A DNA stretch of 51,331 nucleotides from an uncultured Acidimicrobiaceae bacterium (GCA_964496825.1 CAZCBO010000001.1:1-51331); one strand, 5' to 3'; shown: positions 5,090-49,406, counted from the stretch's first letter. The notes: a model not told the origin generated them from the sequence alone. A program made the numbers and translations.

Positions 5090-5153
5090 TCGAAACCGAC
5101 CAACGGCTCTGGCGATACCGGTCGGACGCCAACACGGTGAGGGTGTGTCGGCA

Positions 5154-6305: not shown

Positions 6306-6330
6306 CCGTCGACAGCGGGTTTGAGGACCC

Positions 6331-6752: not shown

Positions 6753-6810
6753 GCCGGGCGACGCACCACGTCCTAGGGGCACCGTGCGAACGATGCCGGA
6801 CGCGATTGAC

Positions 6811-8096: not shown

Positions 8097-8118
8097 CGTC
8101 CTCACTCTCGCACTCTCT

Positions 8119-8146
8119 GTGTCCGGATGCCCGGGGACCCGGACAC
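8119..8146. promoter_or_regulatory. Inverted repeat GTGTCCGG-N12-CCGGACAC between ECF sigma and SGNH lipoprotein genes
   Basis: Read directly: perfect 8-bp arms in the 81-bp divergent intergenic region. Function not established. Confidence 0.3.
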
Positions 8147-8177
8147 TGGATGTGCGAACGCGACGGGGAGGAGCGCC

Positions 8178-10153: not shown

Positions 10154-10221
10154 GCGCCACGGGAAGCCGCCCGCCGACCCCGGGGTATCGATCCCCGGAC
10201 CTGATCGGTCCGGGACGGCGC

Positions 10222-11265: not shown

Positions 11266-11278
11266 CAGTCCTCCGATC

Positions 11279-12166
11279 TCAGATCACTGCCAGCGGGTCC
11301 ACCATCGACCCGGTCGCCCCGCGGATCTTGAGGGGCAGGGCGACGAACAAGAACTCGTACACCTTCTCTGCGGCGATCTCCTCGAGATAGGCGCTCTCCA
11401 TGAGGTAGATCCCGTTCTCGATGAGCAGACGGGTGTGCACCGGCTGCGGGTTGGCCGGGCTACCCCGGTCGGGGGCCGGCTGCACCTCGTAGGTCTCGGT
11501 GTCGGTGCCGGTGGCGACCACGCCGCGCTCGAGCAGCCAGTCGGCGGCCGAAAGGTCGGGGCCGGCCGTCTTGTGCTGGTTCATCTGCTCCTCGTCGGGC
11601 CAGAAGGCGAGATACCCGGTTCGGATCAGCACCACGTCCCACTGCCGGACCTCGACCCCGGCCCAGTCGGCGATCGCCTGCATCTCGTCGGCGTCGATCG
11701 GCGAGGAAGCCGGCAGCGCCTCGACCCCGCGGAAACCGGCGGCGTCGAGCAGTACGCCCCTGGTGAAGAACGGCGGCAACTTCTCCGCATCGCCGAGGGT
11801 CGGACCCCAGTCGGTGAGGTGCTCGGCGGTGTTGCCCCCGCCGTACCAGTGGTTGTCCTCGCCCACCGTCATGTGGGCGAGGGCGTCGAAATGGGTGCCG
11901 GAGTGCGAGGTCGCGCTGACGACCTCGGCCATGTAGCCGAGCCCGGCGTCGTTGGGCGGGCCCCAGGGTTGGGCGCCCTCGGCGCGGATCCCCGGTGGCG
12001 TCCGGTACGACGTCACCTGGAAGGGCGGATGGCCGGGGAACAGCGGCATGCCGGGGAAGCGGGACGCCGCCAGCGAGAAGAACCGCCCTTCCTTCACGAG
12101 CTGGGCGGCTTCGACGATCTTGGTGGTTGGAATGTCCCCTGCGGGACCGACTTCTACGTACGTCAT
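11279..12166 (-). CDS. Cyclase-family protein (kynurenine formamidase / isatin hydrolase-like metal hydrolase)
   Basis: HSGTHFDALAH is the HxGTHxDxPxH-type motif of putative cyclases. ATG at 12166 overlaps the upstream stop (ATGA). Confidence 0.75.
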   Translation of the reverse strand: MTYVEVGPAGDIPTTKIVEAAQLVKEGRFFSLAASRFPGMPLFPGHPPFQVTSYRTPPGIRAEGAQPWGPPNDAGLGYMAEVVSATSHSGTHFDALAHMTVGEDNHWYGGGNTAEHLTDWGPTLGDAEKLPPFFTRGVLLDAAGFRGVEALPASSPIDADEMQAIADWAGVEVRQWDVVLIRTGYLAFWPDEEQMNQHKTAGPDLSAADWLLERGVVATGTDTETYEVQPAPDRGSPANPQPVHTRLLIENGIYLMESAYLEEIAAEKVYEFLFVALPLKIRGATGSMVDPLAVI

Positions 12167-14403
12167 TGCTCCTCCACGAGTGCCCGCCACACCCGCTCGG
12201 GGGTGAGCGGAAGATCTCTGATCACCACGCCGGTCGCCTCCCTGACTGCGGCGCCCACGGCGGGAGCGGTAGAGAGCAGAGCACCCTCGCTGATGCCCTT
12301 CACGCCGTAGGGGCCGGGGCCGTCGGCGTTCTCGACGCTGTCGCTCTTCATCTCCAGGGGCAGATCCATGCTGGTGGGGATCCGGTAATCGATGGCGCCG
12401 AGGTTCCTGATCCGTCCCGATTCGTCGAGGATGATGTGCTCCATCAGCGAGTGGCCGAGACCCATGACGGCGGCGCCCTCGTCCTGCCCCCGTACCTGGT
12501 TCGGGTTCAGCGATCGTCCCACGTCACCAACCGTGACGTGCTTGATCAGCGTCGTGTACCCGGTCTCGCGGTCGACCTCGGCCTCGATGGCGGTGGTGTT
12601 GAATTCGAAGAACGCGGCGTCACCGCCGAGCGGATGGTTCGGATCGCCCTCCTTGCGCGCCTCGCCGTGGCCGAAGAGCTCACCGCCGAGGCGGCCGAAG
12701 CCGGCCTTGAGCACGTCGAGCAGTGGGATCTCCTCGTCCTGCAGGTGTACCACGCCGCGCTCCACCGAGATCTCGCCCTCGTCGACGTCGCGGACTCGCG
12801 CCGCGATGGCCCGCACCTGGCGCTGGATGTCCTGGCAGGCACGCAACACCGCGTTGCCCATGAGTACCGAGGATCGGCTCGCCGACGTCTGCTGGTCGTA
12901 GGGCACCACCGCGGTGTCGCCCATCACCACCGAGATCTTCTCCAGCGGCACGCCGAGCTCCTCGTTGGCGATCTGGGCGAAGATCGTGCGGGCACCCTGG
13001 CCCATGTCGGAGGTGCCCGAGTAGACGAGGGCGCTGCCGTCGACGAGCAGCCTGACCGTCGCATAGGAGAGGCCGGTGGTCGGACCCGACTTGAGGCCAA
13101 GAGCAATCCCGCGACCGTGCCCTTCTGGGAGCGGCGTGTCCCAGCCGATCTCCTTGGCGGCCAGTTGCACCGTCTGGGCCCAATCGCCGTCGGCGCGCTC
13201 GCCGGGCATGAACGCCTCGTTGAACTCGGCGAGGTTGTGCAGCCGGATCTGGAGCCGGTCGATGCCGAGGGCCAATGCCCCCTCGTCGATGTTGGACTCA
13301 CGCGCCCAGGTGATCTGGGGGATCCCGAAGCCGCGCATCGCCGTCGATGGGGTCGTGTGGGAGAGGAGATTCCTCGCCAGGATGCGGACCGCCGGGGTGC
13401 TGTACGGCCCGGCCGACAGGTAGCTCGACTTGCTCACGACCCGGTCGGCGATGTCGACATACGCCCCGCACAGGAAGTTGTTCTCGAAGTCCTGGAAGGT
13501 GATCGTGCCGTCCTCGAGGAACCCGGTCCGCACCGTGACCTCCACCGCGGCCCGGCGCACCGCCTGGAACGTCTCGTCGAGGGTCAGGATGAGCCGGCAG
13601 GGACGCCCGGTCATCAACGCCAGGAACGCCACGAGCGGCTCGTACTTGGCGTGTTGCTTCCCGCCGAACCCGCCACCGGGGTCGGGGGCGATGATCCGCA
13701 CCTTGGACAACGGCAGGTCCAGGATCCCCGCCATGATTCGTTGCAGGAAGTAGGGATGCTGGATCGAGCTCCAGATGGCGATGCCGTCGCCGTCCGGTGC
13801 CGCCATGAAGCCGTGGGGCTCGATGGCGAAGTGCGTCACCATCGGGAACTCGTAGGTGTTCTCGATCACGAGGTCGGCCGACTGGGCATCGACGTCGCCC
13901 CACCCGAAGCGGTGCTCTCGCCGGATGTTCGTCTCGGCGAGGGGGTCGTCGGGGCGGAGGGACGGGTCCTGCACCAGCGGTGATGCCGGGTCGAGGGCCT
14001 CCGCCACGGTGAAGACCCCTCCCTCGAGTGTTTCGTATTCGACCTTCACCAGCCGCGAGGCCGCCTCGGCGGCGTCCTTCGTCTCGGCGGCCACTGCCGC
14101 CACCGGCTCGCCGTGATACTTGACCTCGCCGTCGGCGAGCACCGGGCGGTCCTTGAAGATGGGACCGAACCGGGGCACCGGCTGGGGCAACCGGTCGGGG
14201 GTCAGCACGAGGTGGACCCCGGGGACGGCCTCGGCCGCGGAGGTATCGATGGACACGATCCTGGCCCTGGCGACGTCGAGCGTGACGAGCCTGACCTCGA
14301 GCGCGTCGGGGAGGTGGATGTCGGCCACGTACTTCAGGCCACCGGTGACGCGCCCCACCCCGCCGATCCGGTGCGGAGAGGCGCCAACGCCGTCGACGGT
14401 CAT
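12163..14403 (-). CDS. Molybdopterin-binding hydroxylase large subunit (xanthine dehydrogenase / aldehyde oxidase family)
   Basis: ATG at 14403 overlaps the small-subunit stop. Has GGGFGGK, MRGFG and GQGARTIFAQIA motifs. I saw no CO-dehydrogenase AYxCSFR-type loop. Confidence 0.9.
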   Translation of the reverse strand: MTVDGVGASPHRIGGVGRVTGGLKYVADIHLPDALEVRLVTLDVARARIVSIDTSAAEAVPGVHLVLTPDRLPQPVPRFGPIFKDRPVLADGEVKYHGEPVAAVAAETKDAAEAASRLVKVEYETLEGGVFTVAEALDPASPLVQDPSLRPDDPLAETNIRREHRFGWGDVDAQSADLVIENTYEFPMVTHFAIEPHGFMAAPDGDGIAIWSSIQHPYFLQRIMAGILDLPLSKVRIIAPDPGGGFGGKQHAKYEPLVAFLALMTGRPCRLILTLDETFQAVRRAAVEVTVRTGFLEDGTITFQDFENNFLCGAYVDIADRVVSKSSYLSAGPYSTPAVRILARNLLSHTTPSTAMRGFGIPQITWARESNIDEGALALGIDRLQIRLHNLAEFNEAFMPGERADGDWAQTVQLAAKEIGWDTPLPEGHGRGIALGLKSGPTTGLSYATVRLLVDGSALVYSGTSDMGQGARTIFAQIANEELGVPLEKISVVMGDTAVVPYDQQTSASRSSVLMGNAVLRACQDIQRQVRAIAARVRDVDEGEISVERGVVHLQDEEIPLLDVLKAGFGRLGGELFGHGEARKEGDPNHPLGGDAAFFEFNTTAIEAEVDRETGYTTLIKHVTVGDVGRSLNPNQVRGQDEGAAVMGLGHSLMEHIILDESGRIRNLGAIDYRIPTSMDLPLEMKSDSVENADGPGPYGVKGISEGALLSTAPAVGAAVREATGVVIRDLPLTPERVWRALVEEQ

Positions 14404-14879
14404 GATGCCAACTCCTCGGCAGCGGCCAGGACCGCCTCCGTGATCTGCTCGTACCCGGCGCATCGGCAGAGGTTCCCTGCCAGGCCTTCGTGCACGTCCT
14501 CGACGGTGGGGTGGGGGTTTCGTTGGAGGAGCGCCGTCGCCGAGATCAGCTGGCCGGGAATACAGAAGCCACACTGGGCGGCGCCCTCGTCGAGGAATGC
14601 CTCCTGGAGCGCGCTCAGCTCACCGTGGAGGGCCAATCCTTCGACCGTGGTCACCTCTGCGCCATCGACCTCGACGGCCAGCATGAGGCACGAGTTCATC
14701 GACCGACCGTCGACGAGCACGGTGCAGGTCCCGCACTCCCCGACGAGGCAGCATTCCTTGGTGCCGGTGAGGTCGAGGTCGTCGCGCAGCACCTCGAGCA
14801 GGCTGTGGTGCACCGCCACGTCGAAGGAGCGCAGGGTGCCGTTGATCCTGACCTCGATGGGCATGGTCTCGATGTTCAT
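14400..14879 (-). CDS. (2Fe-2S)-binding small subunit of molybdenum hydroxylase
   Basis: Has the CLVGECGTCTV and CGFCIPG...CRCAGY cysteine clusters. There are ATGA overlaps on both sides. Confidence 0.92.
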   Translation of the reverse strand: MNIETMPIEVRINGTLRSFDVAVHHSLLEVLRDDLDLTGTKECCLVGECGTCTVLVDGRSMNSCLMLAVEVDGAEVTTVEGLALHGELSALQEAFLDEGAAQCGFCIPGQLISATALLQRNPHPTVEDVHEGLAGNLCRCAGYEQITEAVLAAAEELAS

Positions 14880-15730
14880 GACAGTCGCTCGATCGCCGTG
14901 CGCAGCGCTCGCGCTCCGAGAACCCGGAGCATGGCCAGACGATATGGGGGGCTGGCCCGCAACGAGGTCGGTGAAGGACTCGCCTGTTCGAACATGCGGT
15001 CGAGCACCTCGGCCTTGGCATCGTCGGGTGCCCCTGGGTCGGCGAGGATGCCGGTGTCGTCGACGACCAGGAAGGCCCTTGGCCCAACGCTGCCGAAGGC
15101 GATCCGCGTGGTCCCCGCGGTGTCGACACCGACACACATCGTGACCGATGCCAGGTCGGTGCCGCGGCGCCGCACCAGGCGGGTGTAGGCGGCGCCCATC
15201 GGCGGATCGGGCGTCGGGATCTCGATCGCCGTGACCAGCTCGCCCCGCTCGAGTGCCGTCGTGCCCGGTCCGACGACGAAGTCGTCGATCGGCACCCGCC
15301 GGGCGCCCTCGGGTCCGGCGACGACGACCACGGCGTCGTAGACGAGCAGCGCCGGAGTGGTATCGGCGGCGGGCGAGCCGTTGCAGATGTTGCCGGTGAG
15401 CGTGGCCCGGTCCCTGATCTGCACCGAGCCGACCACCTCGGCCGCCTCGACGAGGGCGGGGAACACCTCGCCGACACGCAGATCCTCTTCGATGTCGGTC
15501 ATCACGACCCCGGCGGTGAACGTGAACACGCCGTCCTTCTCCGTGATCGCCGGCTCGAGCTCGGGGATGCGCTTGATGTCGATCACGAGCCGGGGCTCGA
15601 AGTCGCCGTCGCGCAGGTTGATCAGCAGGTCGGTGCCCCCGGCGAGCAGCTTGGCGTCGGGCCCGTACTCGTCGAGGAGCGCCACCGCCTCGTCGACGGA
15701 GGACGGTCGAGCGTAGGAGAAGGGCAGCAT
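14876..15730 (-). CDS. FAD-binding medium subunit of molybdenum hydroxylase
   Basis: Has MLPFSYARPSSVDEAVALL, LLAGGTDL and TLTGNICNGSPAAD, which are CoxM/XdhB-type FAD-binding motifs. Confidence 0.9.
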   Translation of the reverse strand: MLPFSYARPSSVDEAVALLDEYGPDAKLLAGGTDLLINLRDGDFEPRLVIDIKRIPELEPAITEKDGVFTFTAGVVMTDIEEDLRVGEVFPALVEAAEVVGSVQIRDRATLTGNICNGSPAADTTPALLVYDAVVVVAGPEGARRVPIDDFVVGPGTTALERGELVTAIEIPTPDPPMGAAYTRLVRRRGTDLASVTMCVGVDTAGTTRIAFGSVGPRAFLVVDDTGILADPGAPDDAKAEVLDRMFEQASPSPTSLRASPPYRLAMLRVLGARALRTAIERLS

Positions 15731-15731
15731 C

Positions 15732-16619
15732 TCAGAGCACCTTCTCGACCTCGTCGATGAGCGCCTGGGGCCCGGCGGCACGGATGAAGTAGTAGGGCCG
15801 CTGGGCGAAGTCGTCGACGAAGGCTGCCCGCTTCGCCCGAAGCTCGCTGTTGTCGATGAGCGGCATCGGCAGCCCCGGTGCCAGCAGCTCGTTGAGCAGG
15901 AAGTAGTTCTGCAGCGAGTGGAAGGTCTGGAACTGCCGCTCGAAGGGGATCATCTCGTTGGCGCTGGTGTCGAAGTTGCCGTCGATGGCGGGAACCACGA
16001 CGAGATCGACGTCGCTCACCTCGTCGTACTCCTTGATGGCCGGCAACGCCGCGTCACCCCAGAAGATCTCCACCCCGCGCTCCGGGCTCGCCTTGTCGGC
16101 CCGCTCGGTGCCCTTGGCCCGCTTCTTCAGGAAGACGGACTTGGACCCCATCACCGCCCAGCCCCGCTCGTCGGTCACGGTGGTCTCGGTCGACACCAGC
16201 AAGCCGCCGCGACGGCAGGCCTCGATCTGGGCCATGCTCTTGCCATGGTTCGACTCGCCGCCGAGGAACATCACGGTCTTGTCGTCCATCCGAACCGCCG
16301 AGGAATGGAAGGGATGCAGGCCGGTCTCCTCCATCCGGAGCGCCAGCATGGCCACGACGATCTTCTGCAGCTCCCCGGGAAACCAATCACCCTCGAGGAT
16401 CATCACGCCGTCCTCGTAGCGGATGGTCTTCTCGGGGGCGTCGCGGTCCCACGCGATATCCGCCGTTTCGAGGGTGGTCTCCGGGCTGATGTCGACCGAC
16501 GCCAGGCGATAGTCGAGGAACGTCGTGTCGACCAGGGCCTCGTCGATCGGCTCGCTGCTGTCGACATCGACGCGGATTCGGCCGGTGCCTGCGGACATCT
16601 CTTGGGTCAACTGCGGCAT
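15732..16619 (-). CDS. Hypothetical P-loop protein with HPr kinase/phosphorylase-like domain signature
   Basis: LHPFHSSAVRMDDKTVMFLGGESNHGKSMAQIEACRRGGLLVSTETTV resembles the HprK C-terminal pattern lHasaV..g.gvll.G.SG.GKS...l...G..lvsDd. The stop lies 1 nt before the FAD-subunit start. AAAGGAAG precedes the ATG at 16619. Confidence 0.5.
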   Translation of the reverse strand: MPQLTQEMSAGTGRIRVDVDSSEPIDEALVDTTFLDYRLASVDISPETTLETADIAWDRDAPEKTIRYEDGVMILEGDWFPGELQKIVVAMLALRMEETGLHPFHSSAVRMDDKTVMFLGGESNHGKSMAQIEACRRGGLLVSTETTVTDERGWAVMGSKSVFLKKRAKGTERADKASPERGVEIFWGDAALPAIKEYDEVSDVDLVVVPAIDGNFDTSANEMIPFERQFQTFHSLQNYFLLNELLAPGLPMPLIDNSELRAKRAAFVDDFAQRPYYFIRAAGPQALIDEVEKVL

Positions 16620-16698
16620 GCATCTTCCTTTCGGGGCCTGGCCGCTGTGCCCGGCGCGTCGGCGCCCGGGCCGCACCCTGGCCCGACATTTTCGCGTG

Positions 16699-17385
16699 TC
16701 AAGCGGTGGCTACGTCCTCTTCCTCTGCTCGTTCCCTGATCTCTGCGGCCTGCTCGAGGTGGTGGCGCATCACCAGCGCCGCGGCCTCGGGATCGCGGGC
16801 CTTGAGCGCCTCGAGGATCCCCTCGTGGCGCTTGGCCAGCCACATCAGGTCGACACCCGGGGCCGCCGCGGTCAGATAGGTCTGGCTGAAGGGCTCGAGC
16901 AACTGCCAGGTCCGCTCCAGCATCGCATTTCCCGATGCCGCGATGACCCTGGCGTGGAACTCGGCGTCCTTGTAGGCCAGCGGCATCGCATCGCCGTCGG
17001 CGGCCAGGTCGAGCATCTCGTCGTACAGCTTCTCCAGCTCGGCGATACCGTCCTCGCTGATGTTGGTCGCCGCCTGCTCGGCGGCGTACGCCTCGAGGAC
17101 ACCGCGCACCTCGACCGCCTCGATCAGCTCCCTGCGGTCGGGTTTGCGTACCCAGGCGCCGCGATGCGGGCGCATCTCGACCAGCCCGAGGCTGGTCAGC
17201 GCCCGCAGCGCCTCACGAACCGGCGCCTGGGAGATCCCCAGCTCCCTGGCGACCCGGGTCTCGACGATACGAGACCCGGGTTCCAAGTCTCCCTCCACGA
17301 TGCGCTCCAACAGGCGATCCTTCACCTGGTCGCTGAGCACGCTCCGCTCGACGAGCGGATCGGACGGTCGGGAGTCGGTGGTCAT
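16699..17385 (-). CDS. GntR-family transcriptional regulator, FadR (FCD) subfamily
   Basis: Has a winged HTH (ETRVARELGISQAPVREALRALTSLGLVEM) followed by an all-helical FCD-like C-terminal domain. The start overlaps the upstream stop by 1 nt. Confidence 0.9.
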   Translation of the reverse strand: MTTDSRPSDPLVERSVLSDQVKDRLLERIVEGDLEPGSRIVETRVARELGISQAPVREALRALTSLGLVEMRPHRGAWVRKPDRRELIEAVEVRGVLEAYAAEQAATNISEDGIAELEKLYDEMLDLAADGDAMPLAYKDAEFHARVIAASGNAMLERTWQLLEPFSQTYLTAAAPGVDLMWLAKRHEGILEALKARDPEAAALVMRHHLEQAAEIRERAEEEDVATA

Positions 17386-19118
17386 CAGCCGCTGAGCACC
17401 TCCACGGTTCCCGCCGACCCGTTCACCCGGATCCGGTCACCGCTGGTGATCTCCTTGGTTGCCACCGAGGATCCGATGACCGCCGGGATGCCGAACTCAC
17501 GGGCCATCACCGCCGGGTGCGACACCGTGCCGCCGGCGTCGGTGACGATGCCGCTGATCACGCTGAACAGCGGCGTCCAGGCCGGATTCGTCATCTGGCA
17601 CACCAGGATGTCGCCGGGACGGACCTGGTCGAACTCGTCGACCGACAGCACCACCTTGGCGGTGCCCTCGATGACACCCGGTGAGGCAGCGATGCCGGTG
17701 ACGGTCGGTCCCTCCTCGTGCTCCATGTAGAGCCGGTCGGGGAAGCCCCACAGGCCCAGGTACGGGAACTCGAGCTGCGACTCGGTCGCCGTCCCGATCC
17801 AGTCCTTGGGCTTGACCAGCTCCGACTCGGCGCGCTCGGCGCGGCGCTGCTTGACGATGCTCCTGGCGTCGAAGTTCTCGAGATCACCCATCAGATAGCG
17901 AAGCTCGTTGTACTTCAGGAACATGACGTCGTCGGGCTCGTCGAGCACGCCCTCCTCGACCAGCTTCTTGCCGATCGCCATCAGCACCACGCGCACGTGG
18001 GCGTTGGTGCCCTGGTCGATGTAGAAGTGGTGGTCGGGGGTCAGCGGGGCCATCTTCAGATTGACCTCGTTGGCCGCCCGCATCTTCTCGAGCGCCTCGC
18101 CTTCGAGCCCTTCGAGCAGCTCCTTCGAGGCGGCCTCGATGTCGTCGGCGAGCTCCTTCTTCGCCGACGGGTAGTCGTAGTCCGACTCGATGTAGCCCTT
18201 CAGCACGTCCAGCACCGGCACCGGATCTTCGAACCGGCTCGGGAAGATGAACTCGTGGCTCCACACCGCATGCCAGCCGAACTCGCGCTGCCAGGCGGCG
18301 ATCCGCTCCTCGAGGAACTTCTGTCCCTCCGGGGTGCCCTGGAGCCCCTTGAGGATCTCACGACCCGTGTCGCTGGAGAACGCCTCGGACAGCACCTTGT
18401 CCTTCTTCACTTCCTCCTTCATCTCCCAGAGGAGATGCAGCGAGTCCCAGTTGCGGTCGGCCGCCGAGTTCTGGAGTCGACCCAGCAGCACTTCGTCGAC
18501 CTCGCCCCGCACCTCTTCCATCACGGCGCGCAGGTTGAGCGTCGAGGACAGCTGGGCGAAGTTGAGCATCCAGTGGATCTTCCAGTGCCGATCGTGGATG
18601 TCCATCGCATCCTCGAGGATCGTCGCCCACTCCATCAGCGAGATCTCGTCCTCCTGGTCGATCTTCGACTCCAGGTAGGCCAGATTGCGCTGCATCTCGG
18701 GCACGAGCCGGTCGCGCCACCAGTCGGCGAAGTTCAACCCGTAGGTCGGGAGCACCGCGTTCAGGTAGTTGCCGATCTTCCCGGCGTACTCCGGATCGTC
18801 CTTGGGGACCCGCGGGGTGTAGAGGTTGCCGTATTCCATCGCCTCGATGCGGAACCCCGGATCCGCAGGGACCGCCGCCGTGTACAGGTAGCCGTTGACG
18901 TTCTTGGCGATCCAGTCGGCGGCAAACGGCGTGCCGAAGCGCCGGAACATGTGATCGCAGGTCAGCCACCAACCCCCGATGTCGAAGTACATCGGCGAGA
19001 GCGGCTGCGGACAGTGCAGGTCGTCGTAGACCCAGAACAGGCTCCTCTCGGCGTCGGACTCCCATTCGATGGGGAAGCTCTCATCGCCGTGGAACTCCTT
19101 GATGATCGCATCAGTCAC
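17385..19118 (-). CDS. PEP-utilising-enzyme family protein: about 470-aa N-terminal region plus C-terminal swivelling phosphohistidine domain, no ATP-grasp
   Basis: GTG at 19118 is preceded by AAGGAGGAA. The C-terminus is TGIAASPGVIEGTAKVV..PGDILVCQMTNPAWTPLF..IVTDAGGTVSHPAVMAREFGIPAVIG, the PEP-utilizers mobile domain with its catalytic His. The N-terminal part shows no PPDK_N/ATP-grasp motifs. Confidence 0.8.
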   Translation of the reverse strand: MTDAIIKEFHGDESFPIEWESDAERSLFWVYDDLHCPQPLSPMYFDIGGWWLTCDHMFRRFGTPFAADWIAKNVNGYLYTAAVPADPGFRIEAMEYGNLYTPRVPKDDPEYAGKIGNYLNAVLPTYGLNFADWWRDRLVPEMQRNLAYLESKIDQEDEISLMEWATILEDAMDIHDRHWKIHWMLNFAQLSSTLNLRAVMEEVRGEVDEVLLGRLQNSAADRNWDSLHLLWEMKEEVKKDKVLSEAFSSDTGREILKGLQGTPEGQKFLEERIAAWQREFGWHAVWSHEFIFPSRFEDPVPVLDVLKGYIESDYDYPSAKKELADDIEAASKELLEGLEGEALEKMRAANEVNLKMAPLTPDHHFYIDQGTNAHVRVVLMAIGKKLVEEGVLDEPDDVMFLKYNELRYLMGDLENFDARSIVKQRRAERAESELVKPKDWIGTATESQLEFPYLGLWGFPDRLYMEHEEGPTVTGIAASPGVIEGTAKVVLSVDEFDQVRPGDILVCQMTNPAWTPLFSVISGIVTDAGGTVSHPAVMAREFGIPAVIGSSVATKEITSGDRIRVNGSAGTVEVLSG

Positions 19119-19286
19119 GGATTCCTCCTTGCCTTTCGCTGCCGACGTGCTCCGGACATGACGGATTGCGGGGCACCGTCCTCGGATCGGGGTAGCCGCG
19201 ACGGACGACCGGACCGAGCAGGACGAGGTGGTTCCCACTCAGGGTCGCACTGGGGAATCGCGTCATTCCAGAGCTACCTCTCGATT

Positions 19287-19303
19287 GACTATCATAGATA
19301 GTC
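19287..19303. promoter_or_regulatory. Perfect palindrome GACTATC-ATA-GATAGTC (candidate operator)
   Basis: Read directly: 7-bp arms with a 3-nt spacer, in the 255-bp divergent region between the PEP-utilising operon and the phosphatase/PPDK-like operon. It overlaps copy 2 of the AT-rich motif by 2 nt. Confidence 0.45.
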
Positions 19304-19316
19304 GATAATCGATGAT
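19302..19316 (+). promoter_or_regulatory. AT-rich 15-nt motif TCGATAATCGATGAT, copy 2
   Basis: Identical to 1186..1200. A degenerate copy (TCGATTGACTATCAT, 10/15 matches) sits 21 nt upstream at 19281..19295. Confidence 0.6.
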
Positions 19317-19373
19317 ACGGGATCTGCGGCCGACACGTCAACTCGAACACCCCCCCGCCGTCGGGAGATCGCG

Positions 19374-20147
19374 GTGACGATCACCCTCGAGGGGGCGGTC
19401 AACTTCCGGGATCTCGGCGGATGGGCCACCGGGGACGGCCGGAGGGTCAAGGGGGGCCTGCTGTACCGTTCCGGCAGCCTGAGCGGCCTCTCCGACGCCG
19501 ACCTCGAGACGCTGGAGCGTCACGGCGTGCGCACCGTGGTCGACTTCCGCATCCCTTCCCAGATCGAGACCTTCGGCGAGGACCGGATCCCCACCGCGGC
19601 GTCGTACGTGTCGTTGCCGATGGGCGCCGGCGAGCTCAGCAAGGCCGTCCACGACGCCATGCACACCGGCCGCTTCGCCGGTCTCCCCGACATGGCGACC
19701 GTCAACCTCGCCATCCTCGTCGAGGATGGCGACAGCCTCGCCGCCTTCCTCCGGATCGCCGCCGAGCCCGGGCGCACCCCGCTCATCTTCCACTGCATCG
19801 GCGGCAAGGACCGCACCGGAGTCGCCGCCGCCGTGCTGTTGTCGCTCCTCGGCGTGCCGTGGCAGGCGGTTCGTGAGGACTACGAGCGGTCGAACGACCA
19901 GCTGGCCGAGGCGATCGACGCCGAGATCGAGGCGTGGGTTCGGGCGGCGGCGGAACGCTCAGGACGCCGACCGGAGCCCATCGACTTCGAAGCGGCGAAG
20001 CGGTTTGCCGGCGTCGACGGCACCGACCTCGACGCCGTTCGCCATCGGATGGTGGAGGACGCGGGTTCGATCGAAGCCTACGTCCGGGATCGGCTCGGAA
20101 TCGACGACGCCACCGTGGCAGGCTTGCGCGACATGCTGCTGGAATGA
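19374..20147 (+). CDS. Protein-tyrosine-phosphatase-like protein (CX5R family)
   Basis: Has the HCIGGKDRTG active-site loop (C-X5-R-T) and the N-terminus NFRDLGG, typical of the Tyr_phosphatase_3-type family. GGGAG precedes the GTG at 19374. Confidence 0.75.
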   Translation: MTITLEGAVNFRDLGGWATGDGRRVKGGLLYRSGSLSGLSDADLETLERHGVRTVVDFRIPSQIETFGEDRIPTAASYVSLPMGAGELSKAVHDAMHTGRFAGLPDMATVNLAILVEDGDSLAAFLRIAAEPGRTPLIFHCIGGKDRTGVAAAVLLSLLGVPWQAVREDYERSNDQLAEAIDAEIEAWVRAAAERSGRRPEPIDFEAAKRFAGVDGTDLDAVRHRMVEDAGSIEAYVRDRLGIDDATVAGLRDMLLE

Positions 20148-20154
20148 GCACACG

Positions 20155-22290
20155 ATGAGCCTCGTCTACCCCCTCGACCATCGCTACCACGCTCCCCTTC
20201 CCGAGATCGTCGCCATCGTCGGCGGAAAGGCGGCCAACATCGGGGTGATGGCGTCGCTCGGGTTGCCGGTGCCGCCCGGTTTCGCGGTGACGACCGAGGC
20301 CTGCCGCAGCTACCTGGACGACGCCTGGCCCGACGGACTCGATGCCGAGATCGAGGAGCAGATGGCCCGGCTCGAGGACACGGTCGGGAGACGCTTCGGC
20401 GATCCGTCCGATCCCTTGCTGGTCAGCGTCCGCTCCGGAGCCCCGGTGTCGATGCCCGGCATGATGGACACGATCCTCAACGTCGGCCTCAACGACGACA
20501 CGGCGACGGGACTCGCCGCGGTCTCGGGGGACCCGGCGTTCGTCGCCGCCTGCACCGATCGCCTGCAGAAGATGTACACCGGGATCGTCGGCGTGGCCAC
20601 CGTGCCCGCCGATCCGTGGGAGCAGCTTCGAGGAGCGATCGAGGCCGTGTTCCGCTCTTGGAACAGCGACCGGGCCCGCAGCTACCGCGAGCGCGAGGGG
20701 ATCAGCGACGATCTCGGCACCGCGGTGACGGTCCAGACCATGGTGTTCGGGAACCGCAGCGCCGATTCGGCCACGGGTGTGATCTTCACCAGGAACCCCG
20801 CCACCGGCGAGAACATCCTGTACGGCGATCTGATGTTCCAGGCCCAGGGCGAGGACGTCGTGGCCGGTACGCACCAGACCGAGCCGATCACCGTCCTCGA
20901 CGAGCGGATGCCGGAGATCGCCGCCGAGCTGCGACGCTACGCCGATCTGCTCGAGCGCCACTACGCCGATGCGTGCGACATCGAGTTCACGATCGAGGAC
21001 GGCCGTCTCTGGATGCTGCAGACGAGGATCGCCAAGCGCACACCCCAGGCGGCGCTGCGCATGGCCGTCGAGATGGCCGAGGACGACGACTTCCCCCTGT
21101 CGAAGGCGGAGGCGGTCGAGCGCGTTCGGTCCTATCTGGCCGACCCGCCGACGACGGTCGCCGACCAGAGCTCTGACGCCCCGCCGGCGGCAACCGGGTT
21201 GGCGGCATCCCCAGGGCTCGTCTCGGGCGAGATCGCCACGACGGCCGAGGCGGCGATCGCGATGGCCGAGGAGGGCAGGACGGTCATCCTGGTGCGGCGC
21301 GAGACCTCGCCGGACGACGTCCACGGTATGGCCCGTTCGGCAGGCATCCTCACCTCGACCGGTGGGTTGGCCAGCCATGCCGCAGTCGTGGCGCGCGGAT
21401 GGGGAATCCCTGCGGTCGTCGGCGCCGAGGGCGTCGTGATCGAGGACGATAGGCTCTCGATCGGGGACCGCACCCTCGGCATGGGTGACACGATCACGAT
21501 CGATGGTGCCGGCGGACGCGTCTTCATCGGTGTGGTGGCTGGGAGCGAGGCCATCGTGGCGGAGGCGGCGACGCTCCTTTCGTGGGCACGGGAGCTCGCC
21601 ATCGACATCGACGCGGCCGAGCAGGGAAGCGTGCCCGACGAGCGAGAGGAGGCGGCCATGGACGACATCGAAGCGGCGACGCCCGCCGTGGTGCGAGCGC
21701 TGCTCATCAAGGGGTTCGTGACCCCCAACGGCGTCGCCCCCGTGCTGCGGACCGGTGAGGAAGAGGCGGCCGCGATCCTGGACCGGACCACCGCCGACGG
21801 GCTCACCGAGCTCGCCGGCGCGATGTTCCAGCTGACCGACGACGGCAAGGCGCTCGGCGCCGAGTTGATGGCCGCCGACCAGGCGACCTGGGGCATCGAC
21901 AACGCCAACCGCGCCCTCGACGGCTTCCTCGGGATCGACGACCGTATGAAGCACATCGTCACGGCCTGGCAGATGCGCGAGGTCGACGGCGAGCAGGTGC
22001 TCAACGACCATACCGACGAGGCCTACGACGCCGGGGTACTCGGTGACTTCGCCGCCCTCCACGAGGACGCTCGGGCCTGGCTCGAGCCGCTGACCCAGGG
22101 GCTGCCCCGGCTCGCCGGCTACCTTTCCCGGCTCGACCACGCTGCGGCGATGACCGAGGAGGGCGATCACCGCTTCATCGCCTCACCCACCCTCGACAGC
22201 TACCACTCGGTGTGGTTCGAGCTCCACGAGGACCTGATCCGCCTGGCGGGCCGCACCCGTGAGGACGAGGTGGAGGCCGGGCGGGCCTAG
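20155..22290 (+). CDS. Pyruvate,phosphate dikinase N-terminal homologue (ATP-grasp + phosphohistidine domain) lacking the PEP/pyruvate TIM-barrel, with a different 245-aa C-terminal extension
   Basis: Motifs read: GGKAANIG, LPVPPGFAVTTEAC, LLVSVRSGAPVSMPGMMDTILNVGLND, GTAVTVQTMVFGN, FTRNPATGE, QGEDVVAG, DIEFTIEDGRLWMLQTR, and the swivel domain ASPG..VILVRRETSPDDVHGM..TSTGGLASHAAVVARGWG. No PEP-utilizers_C motifs follow. Confidence 0.85.
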   Translation: MSLVYPLDHRYHAPLPEIVAIVGGKAANIGVMASLGLPVPPGFAVTTEACRSYLDDAWPDGLDAEIEEQMARLEDTVGRRFGDPSDPLLVSVRSGAPVSMPGMMDTILNVGLNDDTATGLAAVSGDPAFVAACTDRLQKMYTGIVGVATVPADPWEQLRGAIEAVFRSWNSDRARSYREREGISDDLGTAVTVQTMVFGNRSADSATGVIFTRNPATGENILYGDLMFQAQGEDVVAGTHQTEPITVLDERMPEIAAELRRYADLLERHYADACDIEFTIEDGRLWMLQTRIAKRTPQAALRMAVEMAEDDDFPLSKAEAVERVRSYLADPPTTVADQSSDAPPAATGLAASPGLVSGEIATTAEAAIAMAEEGRTVILVRRETSPDDVHGMARSAGILTSTGGLASHAAVVARGWGIPAVVGAEGVVIEDDRLSIGDRTLGMGDTITIDGAGGRVFIGVVAGSEAIVAEAATLLSWARELAIDIDAAEQGSVPDEREEAAMDDIEAATPAVVRALLIKGFVTPNGVAPVLRTGEEEAAAILDRTTADGLTELAGAMFQLTDDGKALGAELMAADQATWGIDNANRALDGFLGIDDRMKHIVTAWQMREVDGEQVLNDHTDEAYDAGVLGDFAALHEDARAWLEPLTQGLPRLAGYLSRLDHAAAMTEEGDHRFIASPTLDSYHSVWFELHEDLIRLAGRTREDEVEAGRA

Positions 22291-22311
22291 GGGCCGGCGA
22301 GCGCCCTCTGG

Positions 22312-23439
22312 TCAGGCAACGGCACCGCTCGACCGGAGCTCGGCGACCTCGTCGGCGGAGAATCCGGTCTCGGCGAGGATCTCGTCGGTGTTCGCCCCCG
22401 GCTCGGGCGCCGTGCCGGGCTCGCCGGGAGCATCGTCATCGAATCGGGGCGCCGGGGCCGGCAGCGGATGGCCGGCGTGGATGTCGAACACCCCTCGCCG
22501 CGCGTTCCCCGGGTGTGCGGGTGCCTCGTCCATGCCCAGTACCGGCGTGACACAGGCGTCGGTGCCGGCGAAGACCGACTCCCACTCGTCCCGGGTCCTG
22601 CTCGCAAAGACCTCAGCGAACCGCCGCCGCAGCTCGGGCCAGCCGCTCACATCGAGACGATCGGGCAGCTCGGCACCCGCCAGACCGAGGCCGGCGAGCA
22701 GCTCGTCGTAGAACTGGGGCTCGAGGGCACCGACCGCCATCTGCTCGTCGTCGCTGGTCCGGTAGACCGTGTAGAAGGGCGCACCGCCGTCGAGGAGATT
22801 CGAAGCCCGTGCGACGTCCCAGAGCCCGATCCCGAGCATCTCGTAGAACGGCGTCATCAGCGACGCCGCACCGTCGATCATGGCCGCCTCGACGACCCGG
22901 CCCCCGGCCCGGTCCCGATCGAGGAGCGCGGCGAGGACACCGGCCACCAGGTACAGCGATCCCCCGCCGTAGTCACCGATCAGGTTGAGCGGTGGGACCG
23001 ACCGGTCGGCGGTGCCGATGGCGTCAAGGGCCCCGGACAGCCCGATGTAGTTGATATCGTGACCGGCCATGTGCGCCAGCGGGCCGGTGCGACCCCATCC
23101 GGTCATTCGTCCATAGACGAGGCGAGCGTTGACCGTCCGGCACTCGTCGGGCCCGACCCCGAGCCGCTCGGCGACGCCGGGGCGGAACCCCTCGATGAGG
23201 GCATCGGCGCGCTCGACGAGGCGGAGCACGGTTGCCGGCCCGTCGGGATGCTTGAGATCGACGGCGATCGACCGCTTTCCCCTCCCGACGGCCCGCACCA
23301 TGACGTCGGGATACGCCCGTTCGCCGACCCGGTCGACGAGGATCACATCGGCGCCCATGCCGGCGAGGAGCATCCCGGCGAAGGGCACCGGGCCGAGTCC
23401 GGCCAGCTCGACGATCGTGACGTCGTCGAGCGGCCTCAC
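22312..23439 (-). CDS. Family III CoA-transferase (CaiB/BaiF; alpha-methylacyl-CoA racemase-like)
   Basis: Has VTIVELAGLGPVPFAGMLLAGMGADVILVDR and GHDINYIGLSGAL. The start overlaps the sbcC stop (ATGA). Confidence 0.88.
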   Translation of the reverse strand: MRPLDDVTIVELAGLGPVPFAGMLLAGMGADVILVDRVGERAYPDVMVRAVGRGKRSIAVDLKHPDGPATVLRLVERADALIEGFRPGVAERLGVGPDECRTVNARLVYGRMTGWGRTGPLAHMAGHDINYIGLSGALDAIGTADRSVPPLNLIGDYGGGSLYLVAGVLAALLDRDRAGGRVVEAAMIDGAASLMTPFYEMLGIGLWDVARASNLLDGGAPFYTVYRTSDDEQMAVGALEPQFYDELLAGLGLAGAELPDRLDVSGWPELRRRFAEVFASRTRDEWESVFAGTDACVTPVLGMDEAPAHPGNARRGVFDIHAGHPLPAPAPRFDDDAPGEPGTAPEPGANTDEILAETGFSADEVAELRSSGAVA

Positions 23440-25943
23440 CCGCTCAACACCCTGGTGTCGCCCGTCGTCGGGCTCCGGTCGAGCTCGATGAGGTCCTCGA
23501 TCCGATGCCGCAGCTCGGGCACGTGGCTCACCACCACGACCAACCGGTTCCCGTCCTCGCTGACCAGCGACTCGATGCCGCTCATGGCCAGGTCGAGGTG
23601 CTCGGGATCGAGCGTCCCGAATCCCTCGTCGAGGAAGAAGGCGTCGAGGCGTCCGCCGCCGCGCGCCACGATCTCGGCGAGCGCCAGCGCCAACGCCAGC
23701 GAGGCCAGGAACGTCTCCCCTCCCGAGAGGCTGTCGGCCTTTCGGATCGCATCCGCCGCCGTCAGATCGACGATCTCGAAGGCACCGTCCTCGGTGAACC
23801 GATAGCGGCCGTTCGTCAGCAGCTGGAAGTGCTCGCTTCCCAGCTCGGCGAGCCGTCGTCGTTCGTCGTCGAGGAGGAAGCGCACGAACCGAGCGTCGGT
23901 GAGATCGGCTGCGAGCACCTTATGGGTCTGCATCGCGGCGACGTGGGCATCGCGGCGGGCCACCTGCTCTGCCATACCCTCGAGCTGCTGCTCCGCTCTT
24001 TCCACCTCCTCACGCAAAACCGCGACCCTCGACCGCAGGCCGCCAAGCGCCTCGTCGAAGGATCCGGTCACGCCGAGCTCGTCCATGGTCGCGGCGAGGG
24101 TCTTGGCCTGGTCCTCGGCAGCCGACGTCGCCTCGTCGCGGCGCTCCGTGGCTTCGCGGACCAGCCGATCCGCCAGCGTCCGCAGGGTATCGGCCGCCTC
24201 GGCGATCGAGGCGGCGTCGTCCCCGAAGGCCGGCGCATCGGCGATGCGGGAGGCGACACCCGTCAGCGCAACCCGCAGATCGCCGAGCCGCTTTGCGGCG
24301 GCTTGCTCGGCCGCGATGGCGGCATCGTTGTCCGCAATCGCCCGGTCTCGTGCCGCCGTCGCCGCATCGAGGGCGGCGCCGGCGGCTACCAGTTCCTCGC
24401 GCATTGCGGTGAGCACCGGCTCGACCTCCTCCGACCCGAGGAGCTCGACGAGCGCGGTCCGCGTATCGGCTGCCGCCTCGGTGGCCTGGGTGATGCGGTC
24501 TTCGACCTCGGCGAGGCTGTCGGCGGCGTCGGCGGCGCGCCGCTCCGCCTCGCGCAGGGCGGTTCGCGCCGACTCGAGGGAGCCCGACGCCGTCGTGTGG
24601 GCCTCCTCGGCTTCGCTTCGGTCGCGGCGTGCCGAATCCAGCGCGGTGCGCGCCTGCTCGAGATCGATGCCGGCGGTGATGGGTGGAACGGGATCGACCG
24701 TCTGCTCGCATACCGGGCAGCGGTCTCCTTCGCGCAGCTCCCGGCGCAGGGCAGACGCCATGTCGGCGTGGGTCGCTTCGTGCAGTGACTCCTCCGCTGC
24801 TGCGAGGGATTGCGCCGTCTCCTCGGCGCGTTGCGCGGCGGTTCGTGCGTCGCGTTCGGCGAGCGTCACGCGATCGGCCTGGCCGGCTACCTCGGCGGTC
24901 GCCTGCTGCAACCGATCCCTGCTGCGCGCCAGGGCGGCGTCGGCTTCCCGAACGGCGGCATCTCGCTCGTCGCCTGCGGCCATCAGGGCGGTCGCGGCGG
25001 CGACCTGGTCGCGGATCGCCGCCGCGGCCGCCGAGCGCTCGTCGGCTTCCTTGAGCTGGTGCCGCGCCTGCTCGAGCCGCTCCGCCGTCGTCGCACGCTG
25101 CTCCGCAGCGGATCGGGCCGCGGCGAGCGTCTGCTCGAGATCGGTCTCGCTGGGAAACGCCTCGAGTGCCCCTCGCAGCTCGGACAGCTGCTTCTCGGCC
25201 GCGCTCGCCTCCTCTTCGGTGGTTGCGATCGCGGTCGTGAGCTCCTTGACCTTCGGCTCCGCCTCCTCCAGCACCGAAAGCCGGTCGGCATCGGCGGCGA
25301 GGGCGGATCTTCTCGCCTCGGTCTCCACCTCGAGCTGGGCGAGGTGCTGCACCGAGACCGTGGCCTTCTCCGCCTCGACCTCGGCTTCGCGGGCTCGTTC
25401 CTTGGCCAGGGCACGCATGCGGTCGATACGGTCGAGGCCGAAGACACCCTTGAGCACCTTGTCGCGCTCGGCGGGCGGAGCAGTGAGGAATTCTGCGAAT
25501 CGTCCCTGGGCGAGCAGGACCGAGCGGCCGAAGGCATCGAAGTCGAGCCCGAGCAGCTCGGCGATCCTGCTCGTGACGTCGGCGTCGCCGGTGATCTGCT
25601 CCAGCTTCTCGGCGCCTTCGGAGTCGTCCTTCAACCGGTAGAGGGCGTGGTCGCCTGCGCCCTTGCGCCGCAGCATCCGCTGGGCCTCCCACAGCTCGCC
25701 GTCGACCTCGAAGCGGAAGGCGACCGCTCCGTGGTCGGCGCGCTGGTGAATGAGGGCCTTGGTGTTGCGGCCCAGCGATGCCGTACGCCCGTAGAGCGCA
25801 AAGGCGATGGCGTCGAGGATGGTCGACTTGCCGCTGCCGTTCGGGCCGACGATGCCGACCAGGCGCCGGTCGCGAAAGTCGAAGCCGGCTTCGTCGCCGA
25901 AGTAGGAGCGGAAGTTCCGCAGCCTGAGGTCAACCGGGCGCAC
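23436..25943 (-). CDS. sbcC: SbcC/Rad50-family ATPase (835 aa)
   Basis: Has Walker A GPNGSGKST, a long Ala/Glu/Arg coiled coil with a CPVC zinc hook, the signature LSGGETF, and Walker B FFLDEGFGTLD. The GTG start is at 25943. Confidence 0.9.
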   Translation of the reverse strand: MRPVDLRLRNFRSYFGDEAGFDFRDRRLVGIVGPNGSGKSTILDAIAFALYGRTASLGRNTKALIHQRADHGAVAFRFEVDGELWEAQRMLRRKGAGDHALYRLKDDSEGAEKLEQITGDADVTSRIAELLGLDFDAFGRSVLLAQGRFAEFLTAPPAERDKVLKGVFGLDRIDRMRALAKERAREAEVEAEKATVSVQHLAQLEVETEARRSALAADADRLSVLEEAEPKVKELTTAIATTEEEASAAEKQLSELRGALEAFPSETDLEQTLAAARSAAEQRATTAERLEQARHQLKEADERSAAAAAIRDQVAAATALMAAGDERDAAVREADAALARSRDRLQQATAEVAGQADRVTLAERDARTAAQRAEETAQSLAAAEESLHEATHADMASALRRELREGDRCPVCEQTVDPVPPITAGIDLEQARTALDSARRDRSEAEEAHTTASGSLESARTALREAERRAADAADSLAEVEDRITQATEAAADTRTALVELLGSEEVEPVLTAMREELVAAGAALDAATAARDRAIADNDAAIAAEQAAAKRLGDLRVALTGVASRIADAPAFGDDAASIAEAADTLRTLADRLVREATERRDEATSAAEDQAKTLAATMDELGVTGSFDEALGGLRSRVAVLREEVERAEQQLEGMAEQVARRDAHVAAMQTHKVLAADLTDARFVRFLLDDERRRLAELGSEHFQLLTNGRYRFTEDGAFEIVDLTAADAIRKADSLSGGETFLASLALALALAEIVARGGGRLDAFFLDEGFGTLDPEHLDLAMSGIESLVSEDGNRLVVVVSHVPELRHRIEDLIELDRSPTTGDTRVLSG

Positions 25944-49294: not shown

Positions 49295-49406
49295 AATCAG
49301 AGGCTACTTGTTTGACAGCGAGAAGATCAATCATTCTTTCTTAGCAAGGAAGTTGATTTCGTGCCGCGAGTGAACCAACACTGCCATCCGGACCAGGGAG
49401 GTGCCA

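Follow-up and report, generated by a model that had tools for sequence, protein, structure and literature searches.

A VadK-type kinase fused to an Rv1126c-like module, probable partner of an HpeH/PpsA-like protein in a molybdenum-hydroxylase gene cluster

The kinase encoded by Mycobacterium tuberculosis Rv1127c, renamed VadK in 2025-2026 (PMC13400623, EMBO Rep 2026), is a truncated homologue of pyruvate,phosphate dikinase (PPDK) that is unable to act as PPDK. It autophosphorylates on His422 with ATP/Mg2+, and both virulence and growth on propionate and cholesterol depend on it (PMC13400623). The role proposed for VadK is the tuning of the methylcitrate cycle through binding of PrpC/PrpD, with no transcriptional effect on the pathway, and the model of target binding rests on co-immunoprecipitation and on low-confidence AlphaFold3 complexes, with interface scores (ipTM) of 0.36-0.41 (PMC13400623). 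Rv1126c is described as the 'operonic partner' of VadK, the solubility of which rises upon co-expression (PMC13400623, Methods); the two proteins co-purify, and their separation takes 2 M NaCl (PMC13400623). Fused VadK-Rv1126c forms are not mentioned in the main text of that paper. Here we describe such a form, encoded at 20155..22290 on the plus strand of a 51,331-nucleotide (nt) stretch of DNA from an uncultured Acidimicrobiaceae bacterium (GCA_964496825.1 CAZCBO010000001.1:1-51331; hereafter the window, base composition ~68% G+C). The gene, hereafter the target, runs from an ATG to a stop codon and encodes a protein of 711 amino acids (aa) in which a barrel-less PPDK homologue of the VadK type is joined to an Rv1126c-like module.

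The second group of described systems that bears on this locus consists of the two-component small-molecule dikinases, in which HpeH, PpsA and CreH are the components that carry the histidine (PMC12167813), and the ATP-grasp partner is a separate protein, HpeI, PpsB or CreI, respectively (PMC12167813). Our overall explanation, to which we assign a probability of about 0.6, is that the target is a VadK-type kinase with a fused Rv1126c-like module that would form a two-component dikinase with A617, a 617-aa HpeH/PpsA-like protein encoded next to it, serving a molybdenum-hydroxylase pathway. What this analysis itself shows is the domain content of the target, the integrity of its catalytic residues, its membership of the family, the homology of its tail, and the synteny and gene fusions; autophosphorylation of the swivel histidine has been demonstrated for the M. 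tuberculosis homologue only.

The target protein begins MSLVYPLDHRY (ATG at 20155), and the starts of its homologues coincide with this ATG in the family alignment; a longer mechanical open reading frame (ORF), 19726-22290, is only an in-frame 5' extension that overlaps the upstream phosphatase gene. The original prediction, made from the sequence alone, had assigned to the N-terminal part a PPDK ATP-grasp domain and a swivel domain with the catalytic histidine, and Pfam, the alignment to Clostridium symbiosum PPDK and the invariant residues all bear this out. Pfam matched PPDK_N with E 3.6e-51 and PEP-utilizers (PF00391) with E 1.1e-22 at aa 376-454, and PF02896 (PEP-utilizers_C) was absent from the scan of the target protein; a PF01326-type PPDK_N and PF00391 without PF02896 is the combination that had been anticipated. 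The ATP-grasp (PPDK_N) nucleotide-binding domain occupies ~aa 1-340 (20155..21174, plus strand), as delimited by Pfam, by alignment to PDB 1ggo and by invariant residues, and is followed by the phosphohistidine swivel domain (PEP-utilizers) at ~aa 345-468 (21187..21558, plus strand), as placed by the PF00391 match and the secondary structure of the model. In a PDB sequence search, the target aligned to residues 17-529 of C. symbiosum PPDK (E 1.5e-112), its ATP-grasp being a short form from which a ~45-aa insert of the canonical PPDK nucleotide-binding domain is missing. The sequence, the PDB alignment and the family alignment place the catalytic residue at His408 (codon at 21376..21378, plus strand), in GGLASHAAVVARG; the motif TSTGGLASHAAVVARGWG of the target contains the same histidine, which lies in a GGxxSHAAVV context and is equivalent to His455 of C. 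symbiosum PPDK and to His422 of M. tuberculosis VadK. An alignment of 27 diverse family members shows no variation at R93, E277, Q289, R291 or H408 and very little at K25.

The same affinity is apparent from the family models. The target passes NCBIfam NF004531 (PRK05878), the barrel-less family of M. tuberculosis Rv1127c (VadK), with 500.3 bits versus a cut-off of 456, aa 20-512 covering profile positions 24-515 of 534. It does not pass the canonical PPDK model TIGR01828 (527 bits versus a cut-off of 843), the match stopping at profile position 527 of 865. Compared with canonical PPDK (C. symbiosum, maize), the ATP-grasp and swivel domains align with the catalytic residues kept, but the target lacks the triosephosphate isomerase (TIM) barrel and the ~45-aa insert, and it has alanine in place of the regulatory threonine. 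This position, two residues before His408, is part of GGLASH in the target versus GGxTSH in PPDK and phosphoenolpyruvate (PEP) synthase, and it varies across the family, with GGAASH in M. tuberculosis-type VadK, so that PDRP-type control by threonine phosphorylation is unlikely. With the barrel absent, the target protein cannot be a conventional PPDK, as had been foreseen. By homology to M. tuberculosis VadK, with its autophosphorylation on His422 (PMC13400623), it is most likely an ATP-driven phosphohistidine protein with an acceptor other than pyruvate, in agreement with the initial proposal. However, the presentation of the architecture as new did not hold, given that NF004531 exists and that VadK is a published barrel-less kinase.

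The C-terminal tail had been predicted to form a separate module from about aa 465. A separate module it is, but the boundary lies nearer aa 497, after a disordered linker (aa 489-503; 21619..21663, plus strand) where the confidence score (pLDDT) of the full-length model drops below 50; aa 469-480 form a helix that is found in PPDK as well. The Rv1126c-like module itself (aa 497-711; 21643..22287, plus strand) opens with a helix, continues with a winged helix of acidic character (aa 520-562) and closes with a helical domain that includes two beta hairpins, and the tail model thus reproduces the predicted succession of a winged-helix-like stretch and a helical region. This AlphaFold model (aa 471-711, built from 72 sequences) has a mean pLDDT of 94.9 and is helical with a winged helix and no TIM barrel; the full-length model has a pLDDT of 92.1. 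AlphaFold, Foldseek and tblastn agree with the predicted lack of a barrel: with a canonical barrel as the tblastn query, no barrel was found in any frame of the window, the best match having E 2.7. A decayed or frameshifted ppdK, or a diverged barrel, which the original prediction had argued against, has the missing barrel in its favor and nothing else. It can be dismissed with near certainty given the confident helical model, the lack of a barrel match in Foldseek or of any PDB fold match, the lack of a barrel in any frame, the position of the next gene downstream, a convergent CoA-transferase gene only 21 nt away, and the family-wide conservation of the architecture, which recurs in at least 595 species, its catalytic and tail residues being invariant.

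The tail (~215 aa) has no Pfam or NCBIfam match and no PDB sequence match, and the best Foldseek hit of its model against the PDB has E 0.03 and a template modelling (TM) score of 0.3, the resemblance to MarR/GntR-type proteins being limited to the winged helix. A helix-helix-hairpin at aa 524-560 of the models does form a winged helix-turn-helix (HTH) fold. This raises the possibility of a one-component transcription factor in which the winged helix would bind DNA under the control of phosphorylation by the fused histidine kinase, as the names given by annotation pipelines to stand-alone homologues ('MarR family', 'winged helix DNA-binding') imply and as could be read into a weak match of the tail family profile to MntR/MarR winged helices among PDB sequences (E ~1e-3); Pfam MarR_2 scores 15-17 bits on the tail, below its cut-off of 27. 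However, the basic recognition helix and wing of MarR/winged-helix regulators are not seen in the tail: the putative recognition helix has a net charge of -3 in the target (median -2 in 256 homologues), and the isoelectric point of the tail is 4.4 (median 5.0 in the same homologues). This acidity makes it doubtful that the tail binds DNA, despite the database names. Together with the presence of a GntR regulator in the adjacent cluster and the lack of transcriptional control by M. tuberculosis VadK over its pathway (PMC13400623), this makes a transcription factor a very improbable reading. Two further assignments were discarded. The leading Foldseek names pointed to a GntR/FCD-like ligand-binding domain, an assignment rejected because Foldseek TM was at most 0.23 and because hhalign against the cluster's own GntR/FCD regulator aligned 37 winged HTH columns with a probability of 16%; a Pfam DUF5635 match (15.8-18.7 bits versus a cut-off of 25) spans only ~35 winged-helix residues and is uninformative.

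The affiliation of the tail emerged from its stand-alone homologues, proteins of ~201-208 aa that a second search found in Nocardioides, Nocardia, Gordonia, Pseudonocardia and Mycobacterium and that are annotated as hypothetical, as 'MarR family transcriptional regulator' or as 'winged helix DNA-binding protein'. In Nocardioides albidus, a tail ORF of 225 aa (213 aa according to NCBI) is flanked by a divergent Y_phosphatase3 gene on one side and by a gene for a 467-aa barrel-less PPDK on the other. In Mycobacterium asiaticum, a 201-aa tail gene overlaps by 4 nt the stop of the vadK orthologue (PPDK_N plus PEP-utilizers), and the neighbors of this pair are WS_DGAT-like, hydrolase, 6PGD and G6PD genes, an order that matches Rv1121-Rv1127c in M. 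tuberculosis. Over all 201 aa, the product of this tail gene shares 36% identity with the target tail (E 1e-34). The peptides that the rv1127c primers of PMC13400623 encode, EAVFASWNSP and GGAASHAAVVSREL, are present in the M. asiaticum kinase, and we base the Rv1126c orthology of the 201-aa protein on synteny and on these primer-encoded peptides. Given the homology between the tail and the protein encoded directly behind vadK in mycobacteria, the target protein is, on this comparative evidence, a natural VadK-Rv1126c fusion. The tail, which had been called unrecognized, hence belongs to a large family, the stand-alone form of which is the operonic partner of VadK.

The target and the VadK-Rv1126c pair (PMC13400623) share a barrel-less PPDK homologue with intact ATP-grasp and catalytic swivel histidine that passes NF004531, and in both cases the genes are located in or beside metabolic gene clusters. 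The differences are that two proteins in M. tuberculosis correspond to a single polypeptide here, that the setting there is prpR-prpDC and here a molybdenum-hydroxylase cluster with an HpeH-like protein, that a CX5R phosphatase gene lies upstream of the target, and that the host here is probably an Acidimicrobiia-like actinobacterium rather than M. tuberculosis. No link to the methylcitrate cycle was seen, as there is no citrate-synthase or PrpD domain, and hence no prpC/prpD, among the window ORFs scanned.

Among the genomes examined, the fusion is the usual form of this module rather than a peculiarity of the window. Searching with the tail yielded more than 600 relatives, and a search for the motif Hx[VI]WFELHE gave relatives in at least 595 species-level genomes. 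Most of these, among the matches listed, are Chloroflexota (Limnocylindrales, Chloroflexia) or Acidimicrobiia; other Actinomycetota, Myxococcota and Dormibacterota are represented as well. The closest relatives of the target, again among the matches listed, are metagenome-assembled genomes of Acidimicrobiia, at ~58% identity. An exhaustive search returned many full-length representatives of 690-800 aa with 42-62% identity, and in 78 of 80 loci compared, the N-terminal part lies directly 5' of the tail in the same orientation. Some apparent stand-alone tails on long metagenome contigs (P0048, P0025 and P0036) proved spurious: directly upstream, in another frame, lies the PPDK-like part, which marks them as products of frameshifts in long-read assemblies. 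Similarly, in three public long-read metagenome contigs (L001-L003), 'stand-alone tail' or 'swivel-plus-tail' proteins of ~200-400 aa are frameshift products; counts of domain architectures taken from frameshifted long-read data would mislead. The stand-alone forms from cultured Actinomycetes, by comparison, are genuine.

Conservation within the tail is pronounced. Across 256 fused and stand-alone tails, which reach from Chloroflexota to Mycobacterium, K599, W605, Q606, A663, G670, H684, W687, E689, H691, E692 and R702 are 100% conserved, and N617, H619, D621, D625, D681 and S682 are at least 95% conserved. The most conserved stretch in this set is DSYHxVWFELHEDLIxLAGRTR at aa 681-702 (22195..22260, plus strand); DSYHTVWFELHE is the corresponding tail-module motif of the target. 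The conserved residues form stripes with i, i+4, i+7 spacing on several model helices, a pattern suggestive of a single pocket or interface in the predicted structure. The tail could accordingly be imagined to replace the TIM barrel, its helical part serving as the substrate-binding or catalytic domain of a self-contained dikinase for a metabolite. The density of invariant polar residues (K599, Q606, N617, H619, D621, D625, D681, S682, H684, E689, H691, E692 and R702), their pocket-like striping on the helices of a confident model and the location of the tail in the place of the PPDK barrel, joined by a flexible linker, are all compatible with such an enzyme. Nevertheless, the tail has neither fold nor sequence similarity to a known enzyme or ligand-binding domain and is often a separate protein, and we therefore consider a self-contained dikinase distinctly unlikely.

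The genomic neighborhood points to a partner outside the polypeptide. Orthologues of the window proteins were counted by tblastn against the 80 loci, only 54 of which have an upstream flank of at least 8.5 kb. The FAD subunit of a molybdenum hydroxylase was found in 54 of the 80 loci, its molybdenum subunit in 51, A617 in 45 (that is, in nearly all loci with enough flank), a GntR regulator in 41, a 314-aa protein ('u314') in 38, a zinc-dependent alcohol dehydrogenase in 27, a cyclase-family protein in 21 and the Y_phosphatase3 in 9; the CoA-transferase and SbcCD, encoded downstream of the target, were found in none. The usual colinear order on one strand is A617, GntR, u314, FAD subunit, 2Fe-2S subunit, molybdenum subunit, cyclase-family protein, zinc-dependent alcohol dehydrogenase and target. 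In most genomes, the target is thus the last gene of the A617/molybdenum-hydroxylase operon, whereas in the window the cluster runs on the minus strand from 19238 down to 10222, with the target divergent from A617. The gene group that had been taken for a merely divergent PEP-utilizing operon is therefore a conserved genomic partner and probably a functional one.

A617 (17385..19238, minus strand) combines a substrate-binding region of RPH type with a swivel domain at the C terminus, where His574 lies in TDAGGTVSH (PF00391 at aa 540-610), and the Pfam scan shows no ATP-grasp. The region that precedes the swivel matches the C-terminal halves of the NCBIfam models for PigC, RedH, rifampin phosphotransferase and PRK08296, and also residues 680-866 of the RPH structure PDB 5fbs. 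The layout of A617, with its TxxGGxxxH swivel and no ATP-grasp, is that of the histidine-carrying components of HpeHI, CreHI and PpsAB (phenylphosphate synthase) and resembles that of single-chain RPH (PMC12167813); as in those systems, an ATP-grasp protein is encoded in one cluster with the swivel component, in a catabolic setting. No second ATP-grasp gene, and in particular no separate PEP-synthase-type component with an ATP-grasp only (HpeI, PpsB, CreI), was found in the conserved cluster, the only ATP-grasp there being that of the target. A617 is, judging by these sequence features, the likely partner of the target. The two arrangements are not identical, however: the ATP-grasp component here is PPDK-like rather than PEP-synthase-like without a swivel, and the target has its own invariant swivel histidine and an Rv1126c-like module, which gives the system of A617 and target two swivel domains. 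The match of the target to PDB 9goj, a stand-alone 387-aa ATP-grasp chain, has an E of only 2.5e-6.

Gene fusions and operons in other lineages link the same parts. In five representatives of 1049-1321 aa, the VadK-like part and the tail are preceded by an extra N-terminal region that ends in a second swivel. One of them, P0124, is encoded in a Rieske-oxygenase catabolic cluster; its N-terminal region is 29% identical to A617 over 332 aa (E 1e-32) and matches Pfam Rph_4th. In Diaphorobacter sp. HDW4B, an A-like protein (31% identity to A617, E 2e-37), the tail and the VadK-like part are encoded by three adjacent genes. We also observed A-like, VadK-like and tail modules on two Proteobacteria-type contigs (L086 at 8001-11771 and L088 at 4338-9138), in aromatic-type catabolic clusters that hold Rieske ring-hydroxylating oxygenases, APH-family kinases and DUF7064/DUF7065 proteins. 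Because this context differs from the molybdenum-hydroxylase cluster, the gene content suggests that the phosphotransfer module is reused across pathways.

Under the reading that we prefer, His408 would be charged from ATP and the phosphoryl group would then pass to an acceptor other than pyruvate, most plausibly by way of the swivel histidine of A617 to a small-molecule intermediate of the molybdenum-hydroxylase pathway. The target would supply the sole ATP-grasp of the cluster to A617, and the two proteins would constitute a two-component small-molecule dikinase of the HpeHI/CreHI/PpsAB type. The Rv1126c-like module, with its invariant polar cluster including three conserved histidines, may be a docking or relay element, and the CX5R phosphatase would be an accessory in some Actinomycetota and not part of the core. 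Transfer from one histidine to another has a parallel in Enzyme I and HPr of the PEP-dependent sugar phosphotransferase system, where a homologous swivel histidine domain hands phosphate to a histidine on another protein. The donor there is PEP, whereas ATP is proposed here, and the target system has no HPr-like fold, so that the likeness is one of mechanism only.

Several observations weigh against a two-component dikinase formed with A617. His408 is invariant although it would be superfluous if the target merely donated its ATP-grasp to A617, which implies either a His-to-His relay or a second function, and the known HpeI, PpsB and CreI are PEP-synthase-like and lack a swivel whereas the target is PPDK-like. 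Sequence identity to A617 is only 29-31% for the A-like parts found in fusions and operons elsewhere, which makes these parts paralogues and not orthologues of A617. An HpeI-like gene may still lie elsewhere in the genome, beyond the cluster scanned, and the inter-domain geometry of the full-length model is uncertain, with a global score (pTM) of 0.69. Furthermore, the VadK/Rv1126c pair occurs without an A617-like neighbor in the M. asiaticum and Nocardioides loci examined, so that the core pair must have an A617-independent function, and the published model of VadK is one of enzyme regulation by protein binding, not of small-molecule phosphorylation (PMC13400623).

The last two points also speak for a regulatory kinase, one that would sense ATP by autophosphorylation and, in its phospho-form, bind and tune pathway enzymes, with the tail as an adaptor or solubilizing subunit and A617 as a target of regulation or an unrelated protein. 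In the published model, VadK binds PrpC/PrpD without a transcriptional effect (PMC13400623), and the location of the target gene inside metabolic operons fits such a role. However, the VadK binding model depends on co-immunoprecipitation and the ipTM values given above, and the repeated fusion or tight operonic linkage with an ATP-grasp-less HpeH-like component argues for catalytic cooperation. On balance, we regard a regulatory kinase as unlikely, although it deserves more weight than a self-contained dikinase.

An extension of the two-component dikinase that we put forward only tentatively is that the VadK-like, Rv1126c-like and HpeH-like modules constitute a three-part phosphorelay of a kind not described before, driven by ATP and equipped with two swivel histidines, encoded by three genes, two or one depending on the lineage. 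The Rv1126c-like domain, with a new fold and three conserved histidines, would be a relay or catalytic element, and the acceptor would be a catabolic small-molecule intermediate, produced in the context of a molybdenum hydroxylase here and of Rieske oxygenases elsewhere. If this were true, the VadK/Rv1126c pair of M. tuberculosis would be the reduced remnant of a dikinase for metabolites, and the real acceptor of VadK could be a metabolite rather than PrpC/PrpD.

The barrel-less kinase itself being known, four features of this system are, to judge from PMC13400623, PMC12167813 and the literature searched, new: the joining of the kinase to an Rv1126c family member in one polypeptide, the prevalence of this fused form in the genomes compared here, which are mostly environmental Chloroflexota and Acidimicrobiia, its conserved placement in a molybdenum-hydroxylase cluster and the recurrent link to an HpeH-like second swivel protein. 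VadK, a kinase that M. tuberculosis needs for virulence, is a candidate drug target, and Rv1126c has so far been used only as a solubility aid. Because the fusion is the usual state among the genomes examined (78 of 80 loci; the motif in at least 595 species), we argue that Rv1126c is an integral functional part, and the invariant residues (H619, H684, H691, R702 and others) provide a defined set for mutagenesis. The recurrent link to an ATP-grasp-less HpeH/PpsA-like protein suggests a concrete, testable acceptor and ties the VadK family, which ranges from pathogens to abundant soil Chloroflexota and Acidimicrobiia, to the two-component small-molecule dikinases of aromatic catabolism; the acceptor of VadK and the role of Rv1126c thereby become directly testable questions. 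The database names 'pyruvate, phosphate dikinase' and 'MarR family regulator' are probably misleading for these proteins.

Immediately upstream of the target, a Y_phosphatase3 gene (19374..20147, plus strand; Pfam E 8e-58) encodes the CX5R motif HCIGGKDRTG and stops 7 nt before the target ATG, as the original prediction had noted. No terminator-like site was predicted between the two genes, which by their arrangement are probably co-transcribed. The pairing, from which the original prediction had derived a reversible phosphorylation circuit, is restricted to some lineages: the phosphatase gene is near the target in 9 of the 80 loci and directly upstream of it in three only (L004, L009 and L015), the target genes of which are among the closest to that of the window and two of which are labelled Acidimicrobiia/Acidimicrobiaceae. 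In two Nocardioides species, Y_phosphatase3 is a neighbor of the stand-alone tail gene; the majority gene arrangement lacks the phosphatase, as does the M. asiaticum vadK locus examined. By these counts, the association is commoner than chance and lineage-restricted, and is no core feature.

The divergent intergenic region between A617 and the phosphatase gene (19239..19373) contains AT-rich overlapping palindromes at 19284-19317 and one sigma-70-like promoter on the minus strand, at 19341-19312. The palindromes are three, imperfect and overlapping (ATTGACTATC / GATAGTCGAT and others), lie in an AT-rich island and overlap the predicted minus-strand promoter. From their position, they may be an operator for the GntR of the cluster, common to the A617 operon and the phosphatase-target pair. 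As a conserved operator, the palindrome was rejected, being present in 0 of 88 related loci and not above chance within the window.

The remaining genes of the cluster are all on the minus strand. The GntR/FCD regulator, identified by domain scan, is at 16699..17385. It is followed by the gene for u314 (15732..16676), a conserved protein with an HprK/PEPCK-like P-loop (GGESNHGKS, within FLGGESNHGKSMAQIE), the sole Pfam match of which is a weak one to PEPCK_ATP (E 7e-4). u314 could be a kinase or phosphorylase acting on one of the swivel proteins or on the substrate of the pathway; homology of u314 to the DUF7065 protein found beside A-like genes in Proteobacteria was rejected, as the two show no similarity. 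The molybdenum hydroxylase, of the xanthine-dehydrogenase family and conserved in 51-54 of the 80 loci, has three subunits (12163..15781): the FAD subunit at 14876-15781, the 2Fe-2S subunit at 14400-14879 and the molybdenum subunit at ~12163-14403, for which the best NCBIfam match is the alpha subunit of 4-hydroxybenzoyl-CoA reductase (434 bits versus a cut-off of 995). The listed ORF of the molybdenum subunit spans 12163-14574, and its start is probably an internal ATG (MTVDGVG, ~14403) with a 4-nt overlap with the stop of the 2Fe-2S gene, which itself starts at 14879 (MNIETM) and overlaps the stop of the FAD subunit gene. Such stop/start overlaps are a pattern typical of translational coupling. 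Toward and at the end of the conserved cluster lie the genes for the cyclase-family (PF04199) protein (11279-12190) and the zinc-dependent alcohol dehydrogenase (10222-11265).

On the other side of the target, the CoA-transferase gene is followed at 23436-27732 (minus strand) by genes for an SbcC-like protein (835 aa; AAA_23/SMC_N) and an SbcD-like protein (600 aa; Metallophos). The CoA-transferase and SbcCD were rejected as members of the system, being conserved beside target homologues in none of the 80 loci. An Rfam scan of 15000-24000 detected no RNA family. About 25 kb from the target, a 480-aa regulator with an XRE-type HTH and a Peptidase_M78 (IrrE-like) domain is encoded at 47852-49294 on the minus strand, divergent from a malate synthase gene at 49401-50993 on the plus strand. 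RamB and PrpR, which regulate the glyoxylate and methylcitrate pathways in mycobacteria, have this same domain layout.

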